Of a stretch of 64,000 bases of DNA, positions 3,521 through 61,494 are shown piece by piece; within the stretch, counting starts at the first letter, position 1, and each line of letters begins with the position of its first letter. This DNA is from an uncultured Acidimicrobiia bacterium (GTDB taxonomy: Bacteria; Actinomycetota; Acidimicrobiia; Acidimicrobiales; AC-14). The notes beneath the pieces were generated by a model. The model saw nothing but the letters and a program-made list of their open reading frames with translations. It did not search any database and was not told the DNA's origin. The translations under genes were made by a program, and so were the position numbers. The stretch covers positions 160,001 through 224,000 of the forward strand of contig CAWIIV010000006.1 in assembly GCA_963836205.1 (NCBI GenBank). Direction: 5' to 3'.

Positions 3521-4372
3521 TCAGTACACCCAGACCGGCGAGCCGACCGGCATGAGGCCCTCGGCCCAGATCCAGTCCATGGCCGCGTTGCTCACCCGGA
3601 CGCAGCCGTGGGAGGCGGGGTAGGCGGGCACGTCGGAGTAGCCATGCACGGCGATGCCGTCGCCGTGGAAGTACCGGGGCCGGTAGAGGCCGCCCAGCTC
3701 GCCCACGTCGAGGCCGTCGACGACCCACGCCACCTGCCAGTGGCCGGCGGGCGTGTCGGCCATCTCGGTGCGACCGTCGACCCAGTAGGGCTCCTCGGTG
3801 CCGGTGGACGCGTTGAGGACCCACCGCACGGCCCCGTCCCGCACCACGAACAGCACCTGCCGGGCCTTGTCGACCTCGATCAGGTCGCCGCCGGAGCTGG
3901 CCGGCGACGGCCGGGAGGCGTCCGCAAGGGCGGCGACGGTGGCCGCCCCCGCGATGCCGTCCCGCTCCATGCCCTCCACCTTCTGGAAGGCCATGACCGC
4001 CTGGACGGTGAGCCCGCCGTAGGTGCCGTCGGGGGTGCCGAGCCAGTAGCCGAGGCTGCGCAGTGCCTGCTGGAGGGCGAGGACCTCGGGACCGGTGGCA
4101 CCGGGGCGCAGGGTCGTGGGCTCGGGATCGGGGGTCGGGACAGGCGTCGGCACGGGCTCGGGGACGGTCGTCCTCGGCGGACGCGGCGGCGGCTCGGTCG
4201 TGGGCGGGGTGACGGTCGTGGGGGGCAGCGTCGGTACCGTGGTCGCGATGGGAACGGGCTCGTTCGGGACCTCGGCTGCTGCGTTGGTGAGGGCGAAGAG
4301 GGCGACGGCAACGACCGCGGTGAGCGCCGCGATCGCCGCCGACATGCGCTGGAGGATGCGTGTCGTTCTCAT
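3521..4372 (-). CDS. L,D-transpeptidase (YkuD) with peptidoglycan-binding domain
   Basis: Signal peptide, Pro/Thr linker, PG_binding_1 (LQQALRSLGY..DG.YG..T..AV.AFQ), catalytic HG...SHGCVR. Confidence 0.92.
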   Translation of the reverse strand: MRTTRILQRMSAAIAALTAVVAVALFALTNAAAEVPNEPVPIATTVPTLPPTTVTPPTTEPPPRPPRTTVPEPVPTPVPTPDPEPTTLRPGATGPEVLALQQALRSLGYWLGTPDGTYGGLTVQAVMAFQKVEGMERDGIAGAATVAALADASRPSPASSGGDLIEVDKARQVLFVVRDGAVRWVLNASTGTEEPYWVDGRTEMADTPAGHWQVAWVVDGLDVGELGGLYRPRYFHGDGIAVHGYSDVPAYPASHGCVRVSNAAMDWIWAEGLMPVGSPVWVY

Positions 4373-4469: not shown

Positions 4470-5087
4470 ATGGACATCGTGCTCGCCCTGCCGATCCCCA
4501 CCTGGCTGGTGGGCCTGCTGCGGGCGGTGGCGCCCGTCCCCCCCACCTCCGGCGACGTCGACCGCATGGTCGTGGCCCGGGCCCGGCGGGGTGACCACCG
4601 GGCCTTTGCCCAGATCGTCGACCACTACGACCACCGCCTGCGGGGACTGGCCTACCGCCTCCTGCGCGACCGCGACCGGATGGACGACGTGCTCCAGGAG
4701 GCGTACGTCAAGGCGTTCCGATCGCTGCCCCGTTTCAAGGGCGAGTCGGCCCTCGGGACCTGGCTCTACCGGATCGTCTACAACGCCTGTATCGACGACC
4801 TCCGCTCCCGGAAGGATGCGGTGTCCCTCGACGACCAGGCCGCCCCGGTGGATATGGCCGACACCCGCCCCGGCCCGGCCGACGTCGCCGTGGGCCGGCA
4901 TGACCTGGCCGACGCCCTCGACACCCTGCCTGCCGACCAGCGGGCGGCGGTGATGCTGGTCGATGCCTACGGCCTCGACTACGGCGAGGCGGCCGACGTC
5001 CTCGGGGTGGCCGCCGGCACCGTCGGATCCCGCCTCAGCCGGGCCCGGTCCGCCCTGCGCGCCGTCCTGGGGGACGACGGCCGGTGA
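4470..5087 (+). CDS. ECF RNA polymerase sigma factor (alternative start 4440)
   Basis: Region 2 DDVLQEAYVKAFRSL..F.GES...TWLYRI; region 4 YGEAADVLGVAAGTVGSRLSRAR. Confidence 0.92.
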   Translation: MDIVLALPIPTWLVGLLRAVAPVPPTSGDVDRMVVARARRGDHRAFAQIVDHYDHRLRGLAYRLLRDRDRMDDVLQEAYVKAFRSLPRFKGESALGTWLYRIVYNACIDDLRSRKDAVSLDDQAAPVDMADTRPGPADVAVGRHDLADALDTLPADQRAAVMLVDAYGLDYGEAADVLGVAAGTVGSRLSRARSALRAVLGDDGR

Positions 5088-9477: not shown

Positions 9478-11183
<1,706 letters not shown>

Positions 11184-15741: not shown

Positions 15742-15778
15742 AAAGCCCGGGACGATCGATGTCGATCTCCCGGGCTTT
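15742..15778 (-). terminator. Riboswitch expression-platform hairpin
   Basis: AAAGCCCGGGA of the aptamer 3' stem pairs with downstream TCCCGGGCTTT; only a weak U-tract follows. Confidence 0.7.
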
Positions 15779-15860
15779 TGTCCCTCCGTGTGACGAGTCG
15801 CAGCTCGCCTGCACCTCTCGGACCAGACCCCCCACGAGTGGGGGCGGAACCCTAGGTGCC
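15767..15860 (-). ncRNA. Guanidine-I (ykkC-yxkD) riboswitch
   Basis: Minus strand reads GCACCTAGGGTTCCG...GTCTGGTCCGAGAGGTGC...ACACGGAGGGACAAAAGCCCGGGAG, matching the ykkC consensus blocks. Confidence 0.93.
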
Positions 15861-15898
15861 GTGTGTTTTCAGTTGTGATGGGACGGTACGCACCCTTC

Positions 15899-29155: not shown

Positions 29156-29396
29156 TCCCCCCCTGCTTCCTGACGAACCCGCCCATCACGATGGGCGCGG
29201 ACGTCATGGGAACCAATGTCCGGGTCGGGTGCGAACCTTTCACCGTTTTTTGAGCCGGTTCGGCCCGGGTCGGGCGGCGGCGGGATGCCTGGTCGGCGGG
29301 GGCGGCCGGGGGGTGCTCAGGCTGTCGTCGTGCGCGTCGTCGCCGGCACCGCCGCCGATCGACGGTCGGGTCCCGCCAGAGAGCCTCTGGGCGGGG

Positions 29397-30483
29397 TTAG
29401 AACTTCCCGCCGTTGACCAGGCTGTCGCCCGACGGCAGGGGCTCCATGGCGTCCCAGTGCTCGACGATCAGCCCGTCCTCCAGGCGGAAGATGTCCATGG
29501 CGGCCATGTCGTTCCCGGCCCACACCAGGTGCGACAACGTCGCCACGAAGTTGCCCTGGCCGACGATCCGGTGGACGGCTTCGTAGTACATCGGCGGACC
29601 CGTCGGCACCGCCGCTTTCGAGCAGGTGCCGGAGGGCGTCCAGGCCGTCGGGTGCGCCCGAGTTGTGCTGGAGGTACTGCTCGGCCGAGATGAAATCGCC
29701 CACGTCGGCGGTCGGCGACTTGGACAGTCCTTCGGTCAGCAGCCGGCGGACGACGTCCTTGTTCTTCTCGGTCAGCTCCAGGTCGTCGATCTCGGTGGCC
29801 CCGTCGACCTGGGTCCGTCCCGACGGGTTGGGTTCACGCGTCGCGGTGATGACGTCCCAGTGCTCGACGATCTTGTCGTTCCCGTCGACCAGGAAGATGT
29901 CGGCGGTCACCCAGCGAGCGGCTCCGCCGTCGAGGACCTGATTGGCGTGCACGAAGACGTACCGGCCGTCGGTGAGGGTCCGGACGAGCTCGATCTCGCG
30001 TTGGGGGTGCGCCTCGAGGAAGGGCTCGAAGAACTCGAGGAAGCCATCGCGTCCGTCGCGAACACCCGTGCTGTGCTGGGTGTAGTGGTCGCCGAGGTGG
30101 GCGTCGAGTGCTTCGTGGATGTTCCCGCCGCCGATCCCGTCGAGGTAGAGGGCGTGGACGTGGGCCGCGGGGCGAGGCGTGATCAGCGGGACCTCCACCT
30201 GCTGGTCCATCGACATCATGGACGGGTCGACGGCGTCGAGGTACGCAGCCGTCGCCGGCGACGACATGAACGCCTCCATCGACGCGTTGGCCTCGGCGGC
30301 CGAGTCCCACCGGAGCATGATGGTCCAGAGGCCCTCCGCATCGACTTTGATCCTCCGCGAGAGCTCGTCGTACCCGGGGCGCGTCATGAGGAAGTCGCGC
30401 ACCATCACGTCGTTCGCCGCCACGAACTCCTTGGCGGTGACGCCGTCGCGCAGGTGAAGCTTGATCGTCTCGATCACGGCCAT
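29397..30483 (-). CDS. ABM-like plus tandem SnoaL/NTF2-like domain protein, frameshift near 29600
   Basis: Two YxQH..xDG...D(I)F..D..IVEHWD repeats; the last 70 aa are in another frame. Confidence 0.75.
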
Positions 30484-30732
30484 GTCTCGCTCCTATCGGC
30501 TTTGTCGGAAGAGAAGCCCCAGCCGCTGCTGACCTTCCACGGTCTCGTCGACCGGCCGCGACACGGTGCGGACGCGTCGCACCAGTCCTCGTAGCCCTCG
30601 AGCCCGCTCCTACTGTCGCCCACGGTACACGTGCCCACGAAGCGATCGGGACCGATGTCCGTTCGCCGAGACGTGTCGCAAATCTGTCGCGTCGATGACG
30701 CGAAAGGCGTCGCGAGCCGGGACCCTCGACCC

Positions 30733-31422
30733 TCAGGTCGCCTCGAAGACCTTCCGTTCCAGGCAGCGGGCGTCGTCGATCTCGATCACCTGCTCGGCCT
30801 CGACCCGCACCATCCAGCCTGAGGTCGGGTCGTAGGCGTAGCGGATGGTGTTGCGGATGGTGAAACCGCTGACCTCGTCGGCCATCGCCCTGCTCTCGTC
30901 CTCTCCCACCAGGTCGACCAGGGACTCGATGAGGATCTCGGCCGTGGCGTCGGGCTCCGGCGTGACCGTCATCTCGACCACGGCACAGCCGTCGCCGTCC
31001 CGGGGCGTGAGGAGGGCCACCGAAGATGTCGCGGGGAACGGCCGCCCCCCGAACGGGTTGGGCAGCTCGTCGGGGGCGGTGATCCTCTCGTCGGGATCGA
31101 GCACGAGCCCATAGGCGGCGTGCATGACGGCGACGTCCTCCACCACGGTCGTCTGGAGGAACGAGTCCGAGAGCAGGAGGTCGCGCATGGCCGCCGTCGA
31201 CTCGGCCAGTTCGGGTGAGCTGCCCCGCAACCCTTCGAGCTTGTCGACGATCCGCTCGGCTTGGCCGCGAAGGGCGTCCAGGTTCTCCACGTGACCGTAG
31301 GCCCCCGACTCGTCGGTGGAGTACTCGATCGACCGCGCTGCCTGAGTTCGCCTGGCAAGCTTGGTCTGCGCCTTCGGCAGCTGCGGCATCGCATTCGACC
31401 CATCCGTCACCTCGGTAGGCAT
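30733..31422 (-). CDS. Hypothetical protein, possibly 5'-truncated
   Basis: Protein-like composition; no family recognised. Confidence 0.5.
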   Translation of the reverse strand: MPTEVTDGSNAMPQLPKAQTKLARRTQAARSIEYSTDESGAYGHVENLDALRGQAERIVDKLEGLRGSSPELAESTAAMRDLLLSDSFLQTTVVEDVAVMHAAYGLVLDPDERITAPDELPNPFGGRPFPATSSVALLTPRDGDGCAVVEMTVTPEPDATAEILIESLVDLVGEDESRAMADEVSGFTIRNTIRYAYDPTSGWMVRVEAEQVIEIDDARCLERKVFEAT

Positions 31423-31424
31423 CT

Positions 31425-31610
31425 GTGACCCTCCTATACCCCTTGATGGCCGTGGCAATCGCCCTGCAGGCGCGGCCAGGGGCATATGCAGCGCTCATCG
31501 GCTCTGGCGTGTCGTCGGGAGCTGGCGTCCCCACCGGCTGGGGGATCGTGAGGACCTCATTCGACGCGTGGCTACGATCCAAGGCGCCGATGGCGGGAGA
31601 TCTGCGGTAG
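31425..31610 (+). pseudogene. N-terminal fragment of a SIR2-like (SIR2_2) protein
   Basis: ALQARPGAYAALIGSGVSSGAGVPTGWGIV matches the SIR2 GxGxS..AGIPTGW start; stops after about 60 codons. Confidence 0.7.
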
Positions 31611-31618
31611 TGGACACG

Positions 31619-31706
31619 AAAAAAAGCCCCGGTCATCCCAGAAGGGAAGCCGGGGCCCCAAAACAGATACGAATGTTTTCTACTCCGTCGCAGGGAGGGG
31701 TGTCAA
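31619..31706 (-). ncRNA. Candidate ~55-nt small-RNA unit (promoter plus intrinsic terminator), divergent from NYN
   Basis: TTGACA-18-TAGAAA, short leader CATTCGTATCTGTTTT, hairpin GCCCCGG..TCCC/GGGA..CCGGGGC followed by T7. Confidence 0.45.
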
Positions 31707-32260
31707 CCCGCTCTCAGCGCTAACCGTCTCCGTCCCTGCGATCATAGCGTTCGGCTAGTCCAACGGAAACCTTGAAGGTTTTCTTCCGCCCCGACTCCGG
31801 AGCGACCGCCGCCCGTGTCCGTCGCCTGGATCCGCGACCGACCATCATCAAGGTAGGGGGTAGCGTCGTGGCTCCATCGGTTCCTCGAGTACTTCGAAGT
31901 TCATGCCTGATCCCGCAGTGGCCGCACTCGCCACCGACTCGAACGCCCGAGTCCTGGTGTTCGTCGATGGTCAGAACCTCTACAAGACGAGCCAGGAGTT
32001 ATACGGGCACCCGCTGTGCCATCCGCACCTGCTGGCGCAAGAACTGGCCGGGGGAAGGTCGAACGTGCAGTGTCGGTTCTACACCGGCCGCCCCGACCCC
32101 AACGAAGATCCCGCCAGAGCCCGCAGCCTTGATCGCCGTCTCAGTGCGATGAGGTCCGTCGGCGTTACGGTGGTCACTAGGCCGCTCCGATACCACTGGG
32201 ACTGGAGCTACAGAGGACAAGGAGTACCCCGGGCATCGGCACGCGCATCGCCAAAGCAGG

Positions 32261-33690
32261 GGTCACGTCCACGGACGTGGTGTATGACCACCACCACGTC
32301 AACCTCGGGGACTTGTTTACCCCACCTTGGCCAGGTCGGTGTCGTTGGTCGTGTCATCGAGCCCTCCGTCGATGACGATCATTCGGGCCTTGGCCAGCAG
32401 CTCGGGGGACATGTAGCGCCGGGCGACGGCCCACTCGTCGTTCTGCTCGGCCAGCACTGCCCCCACGAGGCGGATCACGGCGGCCCGGTTGGGGAAGATG
32501 CCGACCACGTCGGTGCGCCGGCGCAGCTCCTTGTTGAGCCGCTCCTGGGGGTTGTTGGACCAGATCTGGCGCCAGTGCTCCTTGGGGAAGGTGGTGAAGG
32601 CCAACAGGTCCGCCCGGGCGTCGATGAGCATCCCGGCGGCCTCGGGGTACTTGGCCACCAGCTGTTCCACCACCCGGGCGTGCTGAGCGACGACCTGGGT
32701 GGCATCGGGCTGCTCGAAGATGGTGCGCACCCCCGTGGCCACCATGGTCTGGGCCGAGCGGGGCACCTTGGAGAGCAGGTTGCGCACGAAGTGGGTCCGG
32801 CAGCGCTGCCAGGTGGCGCCCGGCAGCACCCCCGCGATGGCGGCCTTGAGGCCCTCGTGGGCGTCGGAGACGACGAGGCACACCCCCGACAGGCCCCGGG
32901 CCACCAGTCCCCGCAGGAACGTCGTCCAGCCTGCTCCCGTCTCGGTGGTGAACACGTCCATGCCCAGGATCTCCCGGTGCCCGTCGGCGTTGACGCCGCA
33001 GGCCACGGCGCAGGCGATGTTGACGATGCGGCCCTCCTCCCGCACCTTCTGGGTCAGCGCGTCGATGGCCACGTAGGCGTAGGGCCCGGCGTCGAGGGGC
33101 CGGGAGCGGAAGGCGTCGACGGCGGCGTCGAGGCTGCGGGCCATCTCCGAGACCTGGGACTTGGAGATCCCGTCGATGCCCATGGACTGCACCAGGGCGT
33201 CCACCCGCCGGGTCGACACGCCGGCCACGTAGGCCTCGGCCACCACCGCCACCAGGGCCTCTCCGCCCGCCGGCGGGGCTCGAGCAGCCAGTCGGGGAAG
33301 TAGCTGCCCGAGCGCAGCTTGGGCACGGCCAACTCGATGGTGCCGGCCCGGGTGTCGAAGCCACGGCCGCGGTAGCCGTTGCGGGAGTTCACCCGCTCCG
33401 GGCTGCGCTCGCCCCAGGCCGCGCCGCAGGCGTTGTCGGCCTCGGCCGACATGAGCTGCTCGGCGAAGACCTTGACCATGTCGCGGATGACGTCGTTGCC
33501 GCCCTCGCCGTCGATGTGCTTGCGCAGCCAGGCGAGTGCGCTAAAGGTGTCAGGGACCACCGTGTTCCTCCTCAGTTGGTTGCTTGGTCTCTTCCTTCTG
33601 AGGTTGACGCGGTGGTCGTCGCGTCGGGGGGATGGTCAGGCCGTCAGGCCCTCAGCGCCGACTCGTACACCACGTCTGTGGACGCAACTC
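32261..33690 (-). mobile_element. IS256-family insertion sequence
   Basis: Terminal IRs GGTCACGTCCACGGACGTGGTGTA and (G)AGTTGCGTCCACAGACGTGGTGTA; 8-9 bp target duplication (C)AAAGCAGG at 32253-32260 and 33691-33698. Confidence 0.95.
32317..33560 (-). CDS. IS256 transposase, frameshift near 33255
   Basis: RNGYR, VPKLRSGSYFP, GVSTR, SDAHEGL, WQRCRTHF and SNNPQERLNKE motifs. Confidence 0.95.
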
Positions 33691-34082
33691 AAAGCAGGTG
33701 ACGCTTACCCCTTGGCAACGCCCTCACGAGAAGGGCATCGATCTGGTACTCGGGCTCGATGTTGTCGAGTTCGTTCTGACTGGCGTATGCAACGTGGCCA
33801 TCATCGTGAGCCTCGATCGCGATCTCTTCGAGATTCCGCTGGCACTTCAGAACCTCGGGAACCTGGTCCCCAAACCCGTTCGCCTTGAAGCGGCCGTCCC
33901 GGTTCCCGAGGGCCAGAAATGGCCCAAGGTGCTACCCCGGTTCTCCTACACGCACCAGATCACGCGATCGATGTTCGAGAAGGTCAGGGACGACACGAGC
34001 TACACCGTCCCGGAGCACCTCTGGACTCCCCCGACCTTGCCGCTACACCTGCCGTAGATCGCCCGGCAGCGACGGGCCTAAG

Positions 34083-34118
34083 AAAAAATCGGGAGGCCCG
34101 CCATGCGAGCCTCCCGAT
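34083..34118 (-). terminator. Intrinsic terminator (minus-strand polarity)
   Basis: ATCGGGAGGC...GCCTCCCGAT stem followed by a T-tract on the minus strand. Confidence 0.8.
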
Positions 34119-34179
34119 CGTACACAGGCGTTCGGGGCCGATTCTTCGTCTCCGAGCGACCGTCGCTTCTTAGCAAGGT
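34083..34179 (-). ncRNA. Candidate ~97-nt small RNA whose 5' end is antisense to the neighbouring tRNA-like anticodon arm
   Basis: TAGACT -10-like box (34192-34187), TTGACA at 34208-34203, 5' ACCTTGCTAAGAAGC, ends in an intrinsic terminator. Confidence 0.55.
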
Positions 34180-34238
34180 GGGACTAAGTCTAGCGTCAGC
34201 GGTGTCAAGTGTGTCGCCTTTGGCGACAACTTGGTTCG

Positions 34239-34310
34239 AGGCCGGGATGGGATTCGAACCCACGTGCGCCTCCTTGCTAAGAAGCTACCTAGCCACTCGG
34301 TCACCCGGCC
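34239..34310 (-). tRNA. tRNA-Cys-like gene with an aberrant anticodon loop (8-nt TTAGCAAG, or 7-nt with anticodon AGC)
   Basis: Cloverleaf GGCCGGG-TG-ACC GAGTGGCTA GGT-A-GCTTC TTAGCAAG GAGGC-GCAC-GTGGG TTCGAAT CCCAT-CCCGGCC-T; U73 discriminator; 72 nt; CCA not encoded directly. Confidence 0.85.
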
Positions 34311-34322
34311 TTCCGGCGGACA

Positions 34323-34331
34323 GGGTACCAC
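34323..34331 (-). promoter_or_regulatory. Extended -10-like promoter of the tRNA-like gene
   Basis: TGGTACCCT (TGn-TACCCT) 12 nt upstream of the tRNA 5' end. Confidence 0.5.
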
Positions 34332-34483
34332 CGCTCTCTCTCTGGAAGAACAGCCGTGTAATTCCGGGCGCCACGACCGCCGAGATCCTGTCGGTATGAG
34401 CAGCTCGACGGCGGGCTCGCTGCTGTCGTAGGTCGTGGATACCCTCAGCCCCAACTATCGGCCAGGCGAAGAGAAGCCTTGAC

Positions 34484-34612
34484 CTGGCACGTGTCGAGCT
34501 GCGGGGCTCGGGACGATGGAGGGCGAGATACCGGGACCCGGACGGCCGCGAGCGACCGAGGACCTTCGATCAAAAGGCGGATGCCGAGAGATTCCTGACC
34601 GGTCTGGCCTGA
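34484..34612 (+). pseudogene. N-terminal arm-binding fragment of a tyrosine integrase
   Basis: Translates GRWRARYRDPDGRERPRTFDQKADAERFL..stop, typical of actinobacterial integrase N-termini; absent from the ORF track. Confidence 0.7.
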
Positions 34613-34640
34613 CTCCGAGGACCTCACGAGGCGCTCAATC

Positions 34641-36098
34641 GAGGTTGTCCCGGTCGTCGTAGAAGTTTGAGGTGGCGGTCCCCCGCCTGAGACCTGCCGG
34701 ATGGTAGGTGTCGGGCGACCGCCAAGTCACTCGACCAGCAAGGGGACCGCCAGTGAAGAAGAACTATCAGACCAAGGCCGCGCACGCGGCGACCGCCGAG
34801 CTCGCCCTGCCCGACACCGTGAGCCTGGCCATGGCCGAGCTGGCCGAGACAGTGCGCGAGGGCCTTCTCGCCTTGGCCGTCGGGGCTGGGCTGCAGGTCA
34901 TGCACGTGATGATGCAGGAGAGCGTCACCGCCGCCTGCGGGCCCAAGGGCGTCCATGATCCCGATCGAACCGCCGTCCGCCACGGAACCGAGGACGGCTC
35001 GGTGACCCTCGGCGGGCGGCGGTTGCCGGTGCAGCGGCCGCGCATGCGCAGCGCGGACGGAACCGCCGAGGTGGCGGTGCCGGCCTACGACCTGTTCGCC
35101 TCCACCGAGCTGCTCGATTCGATGGCGCTGGAGCGCATGATGGCCAAGCTGTCGACTCGGCGGTACTCGGCCGGACTCGAGCCGGTCGGCACCGGGGTCG
35201 AGGCAGCAGCTCGATCGAAGTCGAAGTCGGCGGTCAGCCGGCGGTTCGTGACCGCCACCGAACGGCCCTGGCCACCATGTTGGCCGCCGACCTGTCGGGC
35301 CTCGACCTGGTGGCGCTGATGATCGACGGCGTGCACTTCGCGGACCACGTCTGCGTGGTGGCACTGGGGATCGGCATCGACGGGACGAAGCACCCGCTCG
35401 GGGTGGTGGAGGGCGACACCGAGAACGCCACCATCGTCAAGGACCTCCTCACCGGCCTTCGGGATCGGGGCCTGGACACCACCAGGCCCATCCTGTGCGT
35501 GCTCGACGGGGCAAAGGCGCTGGTGGCGGCGGTCAAGGCGGTGTTCGACCACCCGGTCGTGGCTCGTTGCCAGCTCCACAAGATCCGCAATGTCGAGTCG
35601 CGACTGCCCAAGGACATGGCGGCCACGGTGGCCCGCAAGATGCGAGCGGCCTACCACGACGCTGACGCGTTGGCCGCCGAGGCGACACTCGAAGCCCTGG
35701 CCCGGGATCTGGACAAGGGCCACCCCGGTGCCGCTGGCAGCCTGCGGGAGGGCCTGGCCGAGACGCTCACCGTCAGCCGCCTCGGGGTGCCGCCGACGCT
35801 GGCCCGAACGCTGCGCTCGACCAACGCCATCGAGTCGATGATCGAGATCTGCCGGGATCACTCGACCAACGTGAAGCGCTGGCGGGACGGGACGATGGCG
35901 CTGCGCTGGTGTGCGGCGGGCATGGTGGAGGCGGCCAAGCAGTTCCGCCGGGTGAACGGATTTCTCCACCTGCCCGCCCTCCGGACCGCCCTTGACGCTC
36001 ACGTCACGAAGGTTGTCGCACCCCCGTGCGAGGATGGGGAAGTAGCCGCCTGATCATCGGGGCCGCCACCGAAGTTCCACGGAACTCGGGACATCCTC
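34641..36098 (+). mobile_element. IS256-family insertion sequence (different from the first)
   Basis: IRs GAGGTTGTCCCG / GAGGATGTCCCG; 9-bp flanks CGCTCAATC / CGCTCTATC (one mismatch). Confidence 0.92.
34753..36053 (+). CDS. IS256 transposase, frameshift near 35265
   Basis: LSTRRY, SKSAVSRRF, MIDG, LDGAKAL, RCQLHK and STNAIES motifs. Confidence 0.93.
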
Positions 36099-36176
36099 CG
36101 CTCTATCGACGCGGCATTCGGCCGTCTCGCGGCCTTTCCGCGGCCTGCGACGAACGCTCACCTCTAACATCGCAGG

Positions 36177-60372: not shown

Positions 60373-61494
60373 TCAGTCGCCGGTGACCACCACGCCCAGC
60401 ATGGCGGCGGCCTGGCTGATCCCGTGGCCGGCAGCGGCGGCCTCGTCGACGGCGGCGATGGCCCGGGGGAAGTCGAGGTCGTCGTCGATCGCCTCGCGCA
60501 CCGCGTCGAGGGCGTCGTCGCCCGTGCCTGTCGCCCGCCACCGGGCCAGGCGTTCGGTGGCGGCCGGGAGCAGGCCGTCGTGCCACGACCACGGCGCCCG
60601 GTAGGAGTGGTCGAGGATGGCCAGTCGCACCGCCATCGGGTCCCACTCCCTGACCAGCTCGCTCACGAACACCAGGTTGCCCAGCGACTTCGACATCTTG
60701 ACCCCGTCGAGCTCCACCATCGGGGCGTGCAACCACCGGCGGACGAACCGTTCGCCGATGGCGGCCTCCGACTGGGCCGCCTCGCACTCGTGGTGGGGGT
60801 AGATGAGGTCGCTGCCCCCGCCGTGGAGGTCGATGCTCGTGCCCAGCTCCCGCAGGGCCAGGGCCGAGCACTCGATGTGCCAGCCGGGCCGTCCCGGTCC
60901 CCACTGCGACGGCCACGAGGGCTCGTCCGGCGCCGACGGCTGCCAGAGGACGAAGTCGAGGGGGTCTCGCTTCACCGGATCGTCGACGTTCCCGCCCCGC
61001 TCGGCCGACAGCTTCAGCATCTCGTCCCGGTCGAGGTGGCTGACCTGGCCGAAGCGGTCGAACGAGGCCACGTCGAAGTAGACCGCCCCGCCCGCCGGGT
61101 AGGCGTGGCCCCGGTCGAGAACCATGCCGATGAAGCCGAGGATGTCGTGGATGGCGGAGGTGGCCCGAGGCTCGCTGAAGGCGGGCAGCATGCCCAGGGC
61201 CTTCATGTCGGCGTCGAACCTGGCCACCTCCCGGGCGGCCAGGGCGAGGTAGTCGATCCCCAGCTCGCGGGCCTTGCGCAGCAGGTCGTCGTCGACGTCG
61301 GTGACGTTGCGCACGCACAGGGTGCGGTGGCCGATGTCGCGCAGGCGGCGCTGGAGGACGTCGTAGAGCAGGTAGGTGGCGGCGTGGCCGACGTGGGTGG
61401 CGTCGTACGGCGTGATCCCGCACGTGTACATGGTGACGACCGGGCCGGGCGAGAAGTCCACCACCTCCCGGCGAGCGGTGTCGTAGAACCGCAC
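60373..61494 (-). CDS. mshC: MshC-like cysteine ligase (CysRS catalytic core without anticodon domain)
   Basis: YTCGITPYDATHVGH, NVTDVDD, GRPGWHIECS, HHECE and KMSKSLGN motifs; 373 aa. Confidence 0.8.
   Translation of the reverse strand: MRFYDTARREVVDFSPGPVVTMYTCGITPYDATHVGHAATYLLYDVLQRRLRDIGHRTLCVRNVTDVDDDLLRKARELGIDYLALAAREVARFDADMKALGMLPAFSEPRATSAIHDILGFIGMVLDRGHAYPAGGAVYFDVASFDRFGQVSHLDRDEMLKLSAERGGNVDDPVKRDPLDFVLWQPSAPDEPSWPSQWGPGRPGWHIECSALALRELGTSIDLHGGGSDLIYPHHECEAAQSEAAIGERFVRRWLHAPMVELDGVKMSKSLGNLVFVSELVREWDPMAVRLAILDHSYRAPWSWHDGLLPAATERLARWRATGTGDDALDAVREAIDDDLDFPRAIAAVDEAAAAGHGISQAAAMLGVVVTGD

Follow-up and report, generated by a model that had tools for sequence, protein, structure and literature searches.

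A Cys-type tRNA gene with an eight-nucleotide anticodon loop, located between two insertion sequences in an Acidimicrobiia genome

The stretch analyzed here (hereafter the window: 64,000 nucleotides (nt) of contig CAWIIV010000006.1, positions 160,001 to 224,000, from an uncultured Acidimicrobiia bacterium) carries a transfer RNA (tRNA) gene that resembles a cysteine (Cys) tRNA in its body and has one nucleotide too many in its anticodon loop. A sequence-only reading had described a tRNA with Cys identity elements and a non-Cys anticodon loop at this place, and both ARAGORN and Rfam recovered it there, on the minus strand. ARAGORN reported 'tRNA-??? anticodon (agca)', a four-base anticodon, and the match to the Rfam tRNA model covers model positions 1–71 with a score well above the gathering score of 29, ranking 39th among the 41 tRNA matches in the genome. 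The drawn cloverleaf bears out the intact acceptor, D and T arms, the discriminator U73 and the short Cys-type D stem that had been read from the letters: all acceptor (7/7), D (3/3), anticodon (5/5, one G.U) and T (5/5, one G.U) pairs form, and the molecule further has a C3:G70 pair, a G13.A22 mismatch and a 4-nt variable loop, G-N-A-C.

To define the isotype, we compared the odd tRNA with the host's own canonical tRNA-Cys(GCA), which is present elsewhere in the genome as a normal tRNA-Cys (G000:C8:131363-131434, 64.4 Rfam bits). The two share the 3-base-pair (bp) D stem, the 13.22 mismatch, the 4-nt G-N-A-C variable loop and U73, features of the tRNA-Cys class. The odd gene had been noted as one nt longer than a typical tRNA-Cys; its length is indeed 72 nt, but the host tRNA-Cys is also 72 nt long, by virtue of a longer D loop. 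At 59% identity the odd gene is no recent duplicate of the host tRNA-Cys, and plain alignment shows no close host tRNA. U73 and the GCA triplet are identity elements for cysteinyl-tRNA synthetase (CysRS), as treated in the relevant part of PMC7609411; the triplet is shifted out of positions 34–36 of a 7-nt loop by the extra A. Alanine (Ala) identity is not indicated, the G3:U70 pair being absent, as had been pointed out, and replaced by C3:G70. We trained a covariance model (R1) on the odd tRNA together with three similar tRNAs; it returned the canonical tRNA-Cys as its second match in the host genome (69.6 bits; the next match, a tRNA-Gly, scored 54.3), and canonical tRNA-Cys made up every non-self locus fetched from 150 other Acidobacteriota genomes (29/29) and every locus fetched from 150 same-class genomes (11/11); R1 includes GCA, which makes this isotype test supportive and not fully independent. 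Judged by U73, the D stem, the variable loop and the R1 ranking, the gene is a Cys-type tRNA. Because the cell has a canonical tRNA-Cys of its own, the odd gene is dispensable.

The anticodon arm reads GCUUC-UUAGCAAG-GAGGC, a 5-bp stem closing an 8-nt loop with a folding energy of −4.0 kcal/mol. An alternative fold with a 7-nt loop, UUAGCAA, and the anticodon AGC had been proposed alongside the 8-nt loop with the quadruplet AGCA; both exist, the alternative containing a G27.G43 mismatch and reaching −1.3 kcal/mol, 2.7 kcal/mol weaker. Without A 34278 the loop would be that of a textbook tRNA-Cys, UUGCAAG. On the fold energies and the four-base anticodon called by ARAGORN, the arm is predicted to have the defining form of a +1 frameshift suppressor, an 8-nt loop created by a single-base insertion.

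We then asked whether this A is real. The 14-mer GCTTCTTAGCAAGG occurs at exactly two sites in the window, 34165–34178 on the plus strand and 34272–34285 on the minus strand, where 0.06 matches with up to two mismatches are expected by chance, and has no further site in the rest of the 4.05-Mb genome. The palindrome CTTGCAAG, the same sequence without the A, lies uninterrupted at six other sites in the assembly, ruling out a systematic assembly error at this palindrome, and the extra A is outside any homopolymer. Because the inverted copy carries the identical 14-mer and the six CTTGCAAG sites lack the insertion, we regard the extra A as genuine, as the sequence-only reading had done in arguing against a read error.

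That inverted copy extends further than had been claimed. Beyond the 14-nt core it corresponds to tRNA nt 8–43, the alignment containing a 2-nt gap and 28 columns of identity. The 30-nt inverted arms (34152–34181 and 34269–34299) can form a helix of ~26 bp in which the trailer of the transcript pairs with tRNA nt 11–39. The minus-strand precursor up to the terminator folds with a minimum free energy of −85.2 kcal/mol (z = −4.64); with the cloverleaf enforced it reaches −67.8 kcal/mol, and the plus strand folds at −80.1 kcal/mol. The trailer also contains a small hairpin, although the inverted-repeat search pairs that stretch (34211–34230) with 35669–35688 and not locally. Upstream, the extended −10 that had been noted, TGGTACCCT, can be read by eye; a scan for the sigma-70 consensus found no promoter at the tRNA and leaves this element unsupported.

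The tRNA lies in a 948-bp scrap between two different insertion sequences (ISs), here IS-A and IS-B, inside an island that replaces unrelated filler between conserved flanks (Table 1). Compared with seven other genomes of the genus, this is a variable spot, occupied by 1.16 kb in one genome and by 6–13 kb in others, and the GC content of the island is 0.60–0.69 against 0.71–0.72 for the contigs. Besides the tRNA and its inverted copy, the scrap holds the 3' half of an NYN gene, a minus-strand terminator and an integrase stub. The stub lies ~190 nt from the tRNA, on its 5' side and facing its 5' end. Integrase attachment (att) repeats are direct and cover the 3' part of the tRNA. The 3' 22-mer of this tRNA has no second copy in the window at up to three mismatches, so that, with an integrase facing the 5' end and no direct 3' repeat, the locus departs from the usual arrangement of an island inserted into the 3' end of a tRNA. 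By appearance the tRNA was carried by, or lay beside, an integrative element that has since been destroyed.

Table 1. Features of the tRNA locus, with positions counted from the first letter of the window
Feature	Position	Strand	Basis
Cys-type tRNA gene, 72 nt, without encoded CCA	34239..34310	minus (34310 to 34239)	ARAGORN agca; Rfam RF00005 45.1 bits; drawn cloverleaf
8-nt anticodon loop UUAGCAAG; extra A at 34278, between U33 and G34	34273..34280	minus	sequence and fold energies
Inverted degenerate copy of tRNA nt 8-43; core 34165-34178 identical, including the extra A	34148..34183	plus	inverted-repeat search and alignment
Small hairpin in tRNA 3' trailer	34211..34230	minus	read from sequence; forms in precursor fold
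Intrinsic-terminator-like hairpin, 15 pairs then TTTTTCTT	34087..34119	minus	terminator scan; would end a minus-strand tRNA transcript
Possible extended -10 TGGTACCCT, 11 nt from tRNA 5' end	34322..34330 (34330 to 34322)	minus	by eye
Strain-specific island, 6.9 kb	29245..36124		synteny breaks in all same-genus genomes; GC drop
NYN-domain (predicted RNase) gene split by IS-A: 31903-32260 and 33692-34057	31903..34057	plus	Pfam NYN on N-terminal part; convergent with tRNA
IS-A, IS256/Mutator-family IS	32261..33691	minus	Pfam Transposase_mut 7.5e-107; four more identical copies in genome (five total)
Tyrosine integrase N-terminal stub, first ~35 codons (...GRWRARYRDPDGRERPRTFDQKADAERFLTGLA*), ends 28 nt before IS-B	34493..34612	plus	translation; PHROG_1 integrase E 1.2e-4
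IS-B, second, different IS256/Mutator-family IS	34640..36101	plus	three more identical copies in genome (four total)

Several neighbors of the tRNA were followed separately. An intact homologue of the NYN gene (277 amino acids (aa), NYN E 1.1e-9) is found in a same-class genome at L158:1021-1854; it gave a weak match to HEC-09, and no reading frame of the island matched any PADLOC defense model. A linkage between NYN gene and tRNA was rejected, since in two other genomes the NYN homologues lack an adjacent tRNA. For an IS1595-type transposase remnant beside the window tRNA, tblastn gave matches at chance level only. The Mutator-type transposase of IS-B is encoded in two overlapping frames (34708–35319 and 35277–36053) offset by −1, an arrangement that may reflect programmed frameshifting or a defect common to the copies. 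Elsewhere, the window contains a guanidine-I riboswitch (15765–15866, minus strand, 89.9 bits). Its match to the 5' ureB small RNA family (10746–11038, plus strand, 51.8 bits) is probably ureB coding region. The genome has a tRNA-Sec called by ARAGORN (contig C7:273666-273761) and a transfer-messenger RNA with the tag AKPHLALAA on contig C14.

We searched for the odd gene in progressively wider collections, in which genomes flagged as unpublished were included (six of the 40 relatives, G558 in the 400-genome search, G201 in the transposase survey described below, and G073 and G098 among the 150 Acidobacteriota). The 40 relatives hold no counterpart, their best matches reaching 80% identity over 50 nt and being tRNA-Ala(UGC) at 10 of the 11 loci scanned, and the seven same-genus genomes hold no homologue. 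With the 948-bp block as query, 400 same-class genomes returned the NYN part only, plus the integrase stub in one genome (G558); in the 150 same-class genomes, R1 found nothing but canonical tRNA-Cys. Phage and plasmid collections gave no match to the odd tRNA. Viral contigs held no counterpart, with neither the 3' 22-mer nor a D-arm-to-loop pattern matching among them. A metagenome scan with TTAGCAAGG-N10-12-GGTTCGAWTCC yielded 21 loci, none Cys-like: three were tRNA-Ala(AGC) by ARAGORN, four were uncalled with similar sequence and the rest were not tRNAs. On these comparisons, the gene is supernumerary, foreign and horizontally acquired. The window locus is thus not conserved in the genomes and collections searched, a finding that counts against the functional proposals of the sequence-only reading; a functional reading is kept alive by the persistence, in other phyla, of comparable extra-A Cys-type tRNAs carried by mobile elements.

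These relatives came from a scan with YTAGCAAR-N12-GGTTCRAWTCC of viral contigs and of 185,579 species represented by one genome each, which gave 81 matches in 77 loci; the pattern demanded TAGCAA, so that the recurrence of the A is partly built in. Of the 81, seven belong to the Cys type, having U73 and an A in front of GCA: single sites at L025, L081 and L045, three sites in a Bryobacterales genome and one on the viral contig L092. These lineages are 53–70% identical among themselves and to the window gene. L025 and L081, from two Acidobacteriota genomes, share the loop UUAGCAAG and are 67% and 64% identical to the window gene, and all four bacterial genomes concerned also hold a canonical tRNA-Cys. 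On the viral contig, the tRNA has a perfect stem and adjoins a tRNA-Arg.

The bacterial cases are associated with transposases. In the Bryobacterales genome, the tRNA is cargo of an active ~2-kb IS1595-family element (L071:4427-6425; also L076, L085, L208, L209 and L213) laid out as a transposase, then the tRNA (8-nt loop CUAGCAAA, U73, encoded CCA), then a 165-aa reading frame, with a 25-nt terminal inverted repeat read at one copy. L025:3482-4803 and L081:1251-2577 form a common 1.3-kb unit in different surroundings, in which the tRNA lies upstream of a 312-aa IS1595/IS1-like transposase within a ~370-nt non-coding stretch of 95% mean column identity. At L045, a C-terminal fragment of the same type of transposase lies 12 nt from the tRNA. 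This transposase type is present in 49 of 301 Acidobacteriota genomes; among 30 of its loci fetched, two had the odd tRNA (both already known), one had a canonical tRNA-Cys and 24 had no tRNA. We therefore rejected the idea that the family regularly includes the tRNA (2/30 loci), the closest other copy, L129, sharing the transposase region only. No inverted tRNA copy was found at the Bryobacterales or viral loci; at the L025 unit edge (4805–4818), tRNA nt 39–52 recur inverted and without mismatch over 14 nt.

Other groups of tRNA-like sequences also came to light. Chitinophagaceae matches (Niastella, Longitalea and others; L027:6380-6450, L031, L043, L057, L077 and L054) were rejected as kin, since they have the canonical length and carry A33 where U33 is universal. 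These Cys-like tRNAs have A1:U72 and G73 (U1:A72 and C73 in L054) and lie, at four of six loci, directly downstream of a reading frame of ~411–431 aa, which at the one locus checked by Pfam (L027) is a fatty-acid-hydroxylase gene; a canonical tRNA-Cys was found by pattern in two of the five genomes checked, and the Rfam tRNA model stays below threshold on L027. Viral and metagenome contigs (L091, L096, L104, L106, L110, L114-L116 and L118) carry tRNA-Ala(AGC)-like genes with G3:U70 and an unusual D arm (CAUGUUCCAAGGCGGCGAA type), most of which ARAGORN misses. Finally, L035 (~2890-2950) and L036 (~4010-4075), one of them in an Acidimicrobiaceae genome, contain tRNA-Ala 3' halves that start in the anticodon loop (UUAGCAAG) and look like att-site remnants of elements recombining there.

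We favor, with about even confidence, the reading that this Cys-type tRNA came in by horizontal transfer, carries a real insertion of one base and has most likely become an unselected relic. The tRNA would have arrived as cargo of, or beside, an integrative element, and insertion of the A between U33 and G34 would have widened its anticodon loop to 8 nt. The element would later have been destroyed, its integrase cut to a stub by one IS256-family copy and the neighboring NYN gene split by a second, leaving only the 948-bp scrap with the tRNA between active IS copies. If the gene is transcribed, a run to the terminator (34119 to 34087) would include the trailer that pairs with tRNA nt 11–39 and competes with the cloverleaf. 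Since it retains U73 and the GCA triplet, any molecule that matured would probably still be a substrate for CysRS, and once charged might decode UGC and UGU poorly, with some +1 tendency at UGC-U; for this ribosomal behavior we argue by analogy from classical 8-nt-loop suppressors and yeast mitochondrial tRNA-Thr1. We prefer the relic reading because the gene is a singleton and dispensable, its element is dead, its tRNA score is weak, its precursor prefers a non-tRNA fold and engineered Cys quadruplet tRNAs perform poorly. In E. coli, such engineered tRNAs gave too little protein to characterize, as the pertinent section of PMC9094753 reports.

The evidence pulls two ways, however, and a number of observations speak against a relic. 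Of the usual marks of a pseudogene, the lack of conservation in related genomes is found here, whereas loss of pairing or of conserved nucleotides is not: U8, A14, G18G19 and GGTTCGAATCC are all kept, the T loop fits GTTCRA, and the anticodon loop is the sole deviation, an intactness of the rest that long neutral decay would not predict. The gene has remained perfect while its inverted copy has diverged, and a strand-specific terminator follows its 3' end. In the 10-bp outer CCGAGUGGCU arm of the inverted repeat, all three differences are transitions that preserve pairing, as G.U, solely in the minus-strand RNA, which hints at selection on RNA structure, three sites being too few to show it. 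Comparable tRNAs are also kept on mobile elements: the extra-A tRNA borne by the IS1595-family element occurs at three identical sites, two of them flanked by 8-bp target duplications (TTTCGTTG and TTAAAAAT), and the tRNAs of L025 and L081 are 97% identical while their transposases are only 64% identical.

These observations lend some weight to a functional mobile-element tRNA in which the extra A was selected, either to make the loop a poor target for an anticodon nuclease directed at tRNA-Cys while still decoding Cys, or to recode by +1 at the quadruplet UGCU to the element's advantage; we consider this possible, though unlikely. An intact cloverleaf followed by a terminator, the recurrence of supernumerary Cys-type tRNAs with an A before GCA on an IS1595 element, on a tRNA-plus-transposase unit and on a viral contig, and the canonical tRNA-Cys kept by all four bacterial carriers speak in its favor. 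Phage tRNAs with altered anticodon loops escape tRNA-cutting defenses in the cases presented in parts of PMC10264068 and PMC11555353, and here a predicted RNase gene (NYN) is convergent with the tRNA. Against this, the search pattern itself favored the A, lineages only 53–70% identical need not share a function, the window locus has no homologue in the searches made and its element is dead, NYN homologues occur without a tRNA alongside in two other genomes, and the odd tRNA was found at no more than the two already known of the 30 Acidobacteriota transposase loci. Within the host, 381 of 3195 UGC codons are followed by U (UGCU); near the tRNA no frame needing +1 was seen, the offset in IS-B being −1. 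A broader version, quite unlikely in our estimation, takes extra-A Cys-type tRNAs generally as recurrent, selected mobile-element cargo, acting as UGCU +1 decoders or as nuclease-proof substitutes for tRNA-Cys, with the self-complementary trailer serving at this locus as a brake on a potentially toxic tRNA. As for the sequence-only reading, which had proposed a mistranslating, recoding, decoy or nuclease-resistant tRNA, its description of the body and loop stands and none of the four functions is directly supported.

A distinctly improbable alternative is that the locus matters as DNA or RNA structure. In that case the quasi-palindrome and the 30-nt inverted arms would be left over from recombination or from an att site, or else would form a precursor hairpin under selection, and the resemblance to a tRNA would be incidental or would act only as a processing signal. 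The 26-bp helix of the inverted arms, the strand asymmetry of the folds (−85.2 kcal/mol minus versus −80.1 plus) and the integrase stub 190 nt away fit this idea, and the IS-borne tRNAs are found either between two reading frames or in the leader of the transposase gene, positions from which an RNase P/Z site could punctuate the transcript. Yet integrase repeats are direct and lie over the tRNA 3' part, where none is present, the integrase faces the tRNA 5' end, the Bryobacterales and viral loci lack an inverted copy, and the three transitions are too few to show selection.

Very unlikely, in turn, is an Ala-to-Cys mistranslator that would use the 7-nt loop and the anticodon AGC, be charged by CysRS through U73 and the nearby GCA, and insert Cys at GCU. 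The 7-nt fold exists and is the form ARAGORN prefers for the Acidobacteriota relatives; GCU makes up 2.3% of host Ala codons (1325/57793), which would limit the damage, and is read in this host only by wobble, through tRNA-Ala(GGC). Actinobacteria do have a mistranslating tRNA, tRNA-ProA, as reviewed in portions of PMC10404621 and PMC11415595. The window tRNA, however, pays 2.7 kcal/mol and a G27.G43 mismatch for this fold, and the AGC register puts GCA at 35–37 instead of 34–36, making CysRS recognition doubtful. The gene is not conserved, and there is no dedicated synthetase nearby: the CysRS-like gene of the window (60373–61494, minus strand), tried as a candidate, has the mycothiol ligase MshC as its best match (412 bits, short of the model cut-off of 485) and lies 26 kb from the tRNA, the true CysRS being on contig C22. 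This MshC-like gene suggests an actinobacterial genome.

It is hardly credible that the A is an assembly artifact hiding a canonical second tRNA-Cys(GCA), since the perfect 7-nt loop left by one base fewer and the source, a metagenome-assembled genome that is 88.6% complete, are outweighed by the identical 14-mer at two inverted sites, the position outside a homopolymer, the uninterrupted CTTGCAAG elsewhere and the comparable loops in independent assemblies.

Were such a tRNA active, mobile DNA would be carrying a natural means of +1 recoding or Cys misincorporation, and genetic-code work would gain a scaffold ready for use. If it is a relic, the locus still points to a few better test cases, the best being the IS with such a tRNA at three identical sites. 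To our knowledge, hardly any bacterial tRNA genes whose anticodon loops are naturally enlarged have been described. A literature search found no bacterial Cys-type tRNA with an 8-nt loop and no tRNA inside an IS1595-family element; its scope lay outside subscription journals and supplementary tables, and Mukai 2017 (PMC5389517) and Table S1 of a 2026 Nucleic Acids Research (NAR) survey (PMC13092985) may hold cases. The authors of an eLife study on engineered quadruplet tRNAs anticipate that such tRNAs occur very rarely in nature (PMC9094753).

Several known systems invite comparison. With tRNAs at integrase attachment sites the locus shares a nearby tyrosine integrase and a partial second tRNA copy; it differs in that the copy is inverted and covers nt 8–43 rather than the 3' end, the integrase lies 5' and there is no direct 3' repeat. 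Streptomyces tRNA-ProA and tRNA-ProX, which have a Pro body and the Ala anticodon AGC, are served by a dedicated prolyl-tRNA synthetase (ProRS) paralogue. The window tRNA resembles them in a possible AGC on a non-Ala body, in an actinobacterium, with a rare codon as target, to the extent that PMC10404621 and PMC11415595 cover them; these tRNAs have a 7-nt loop and form a conserved family, whereas the AGC register is weaker here and the gene is a singleton with no dedicated synthetase nearby. Like the phage and mobile-element tRNAs that escape nucleases, it is supernumerary, sits on mobile DNA and has an anticodon loop unlike that of the host isoacceptor. The escaping tRNAs described in the relevant parts of PMC10264068 and PMC11555353 carry substitutions in 7-nt loops, with no insertion found among them, and this genome has no identified nuclease directed at tRNA-Cys.

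Closest in form are tRNAs with 8-nt loops. Yeast mitochondrial tRNA-Thr1(UAG) has a natural 8-nt loop and derives from another tRNA, and it illustrates, in the parts of PMC3113583, PMC4267643 and PMC7609411 devoted to it, that such loops can serve ordinary triplet decoding; it is organellar, essential and conserved and reassigns CUN, whereas the window tRNA is bacterial, dispensable and not conserved. The frameshift suppressors sufD, SufB2/SufA6 and SufJ, as characterized in sections of PMC9094753 and PMC4238358, likewise consist of a normal tRNA with one extra loop nucleotide that keeps its synthetase identity, and a four-base reading, here of UGCU, is predicted by the same logic. Those suppressors are alleles obtained by laboratory selection, affect chromosomal tRNAs for Gly, Pro and Thr and have demonstrated activity, whereas the tRNA of the window is a natural, supernumerary, Cys-type molecule encoded on mobile DNA, with its insertion 5' of the anticodon and its decoding predicted.

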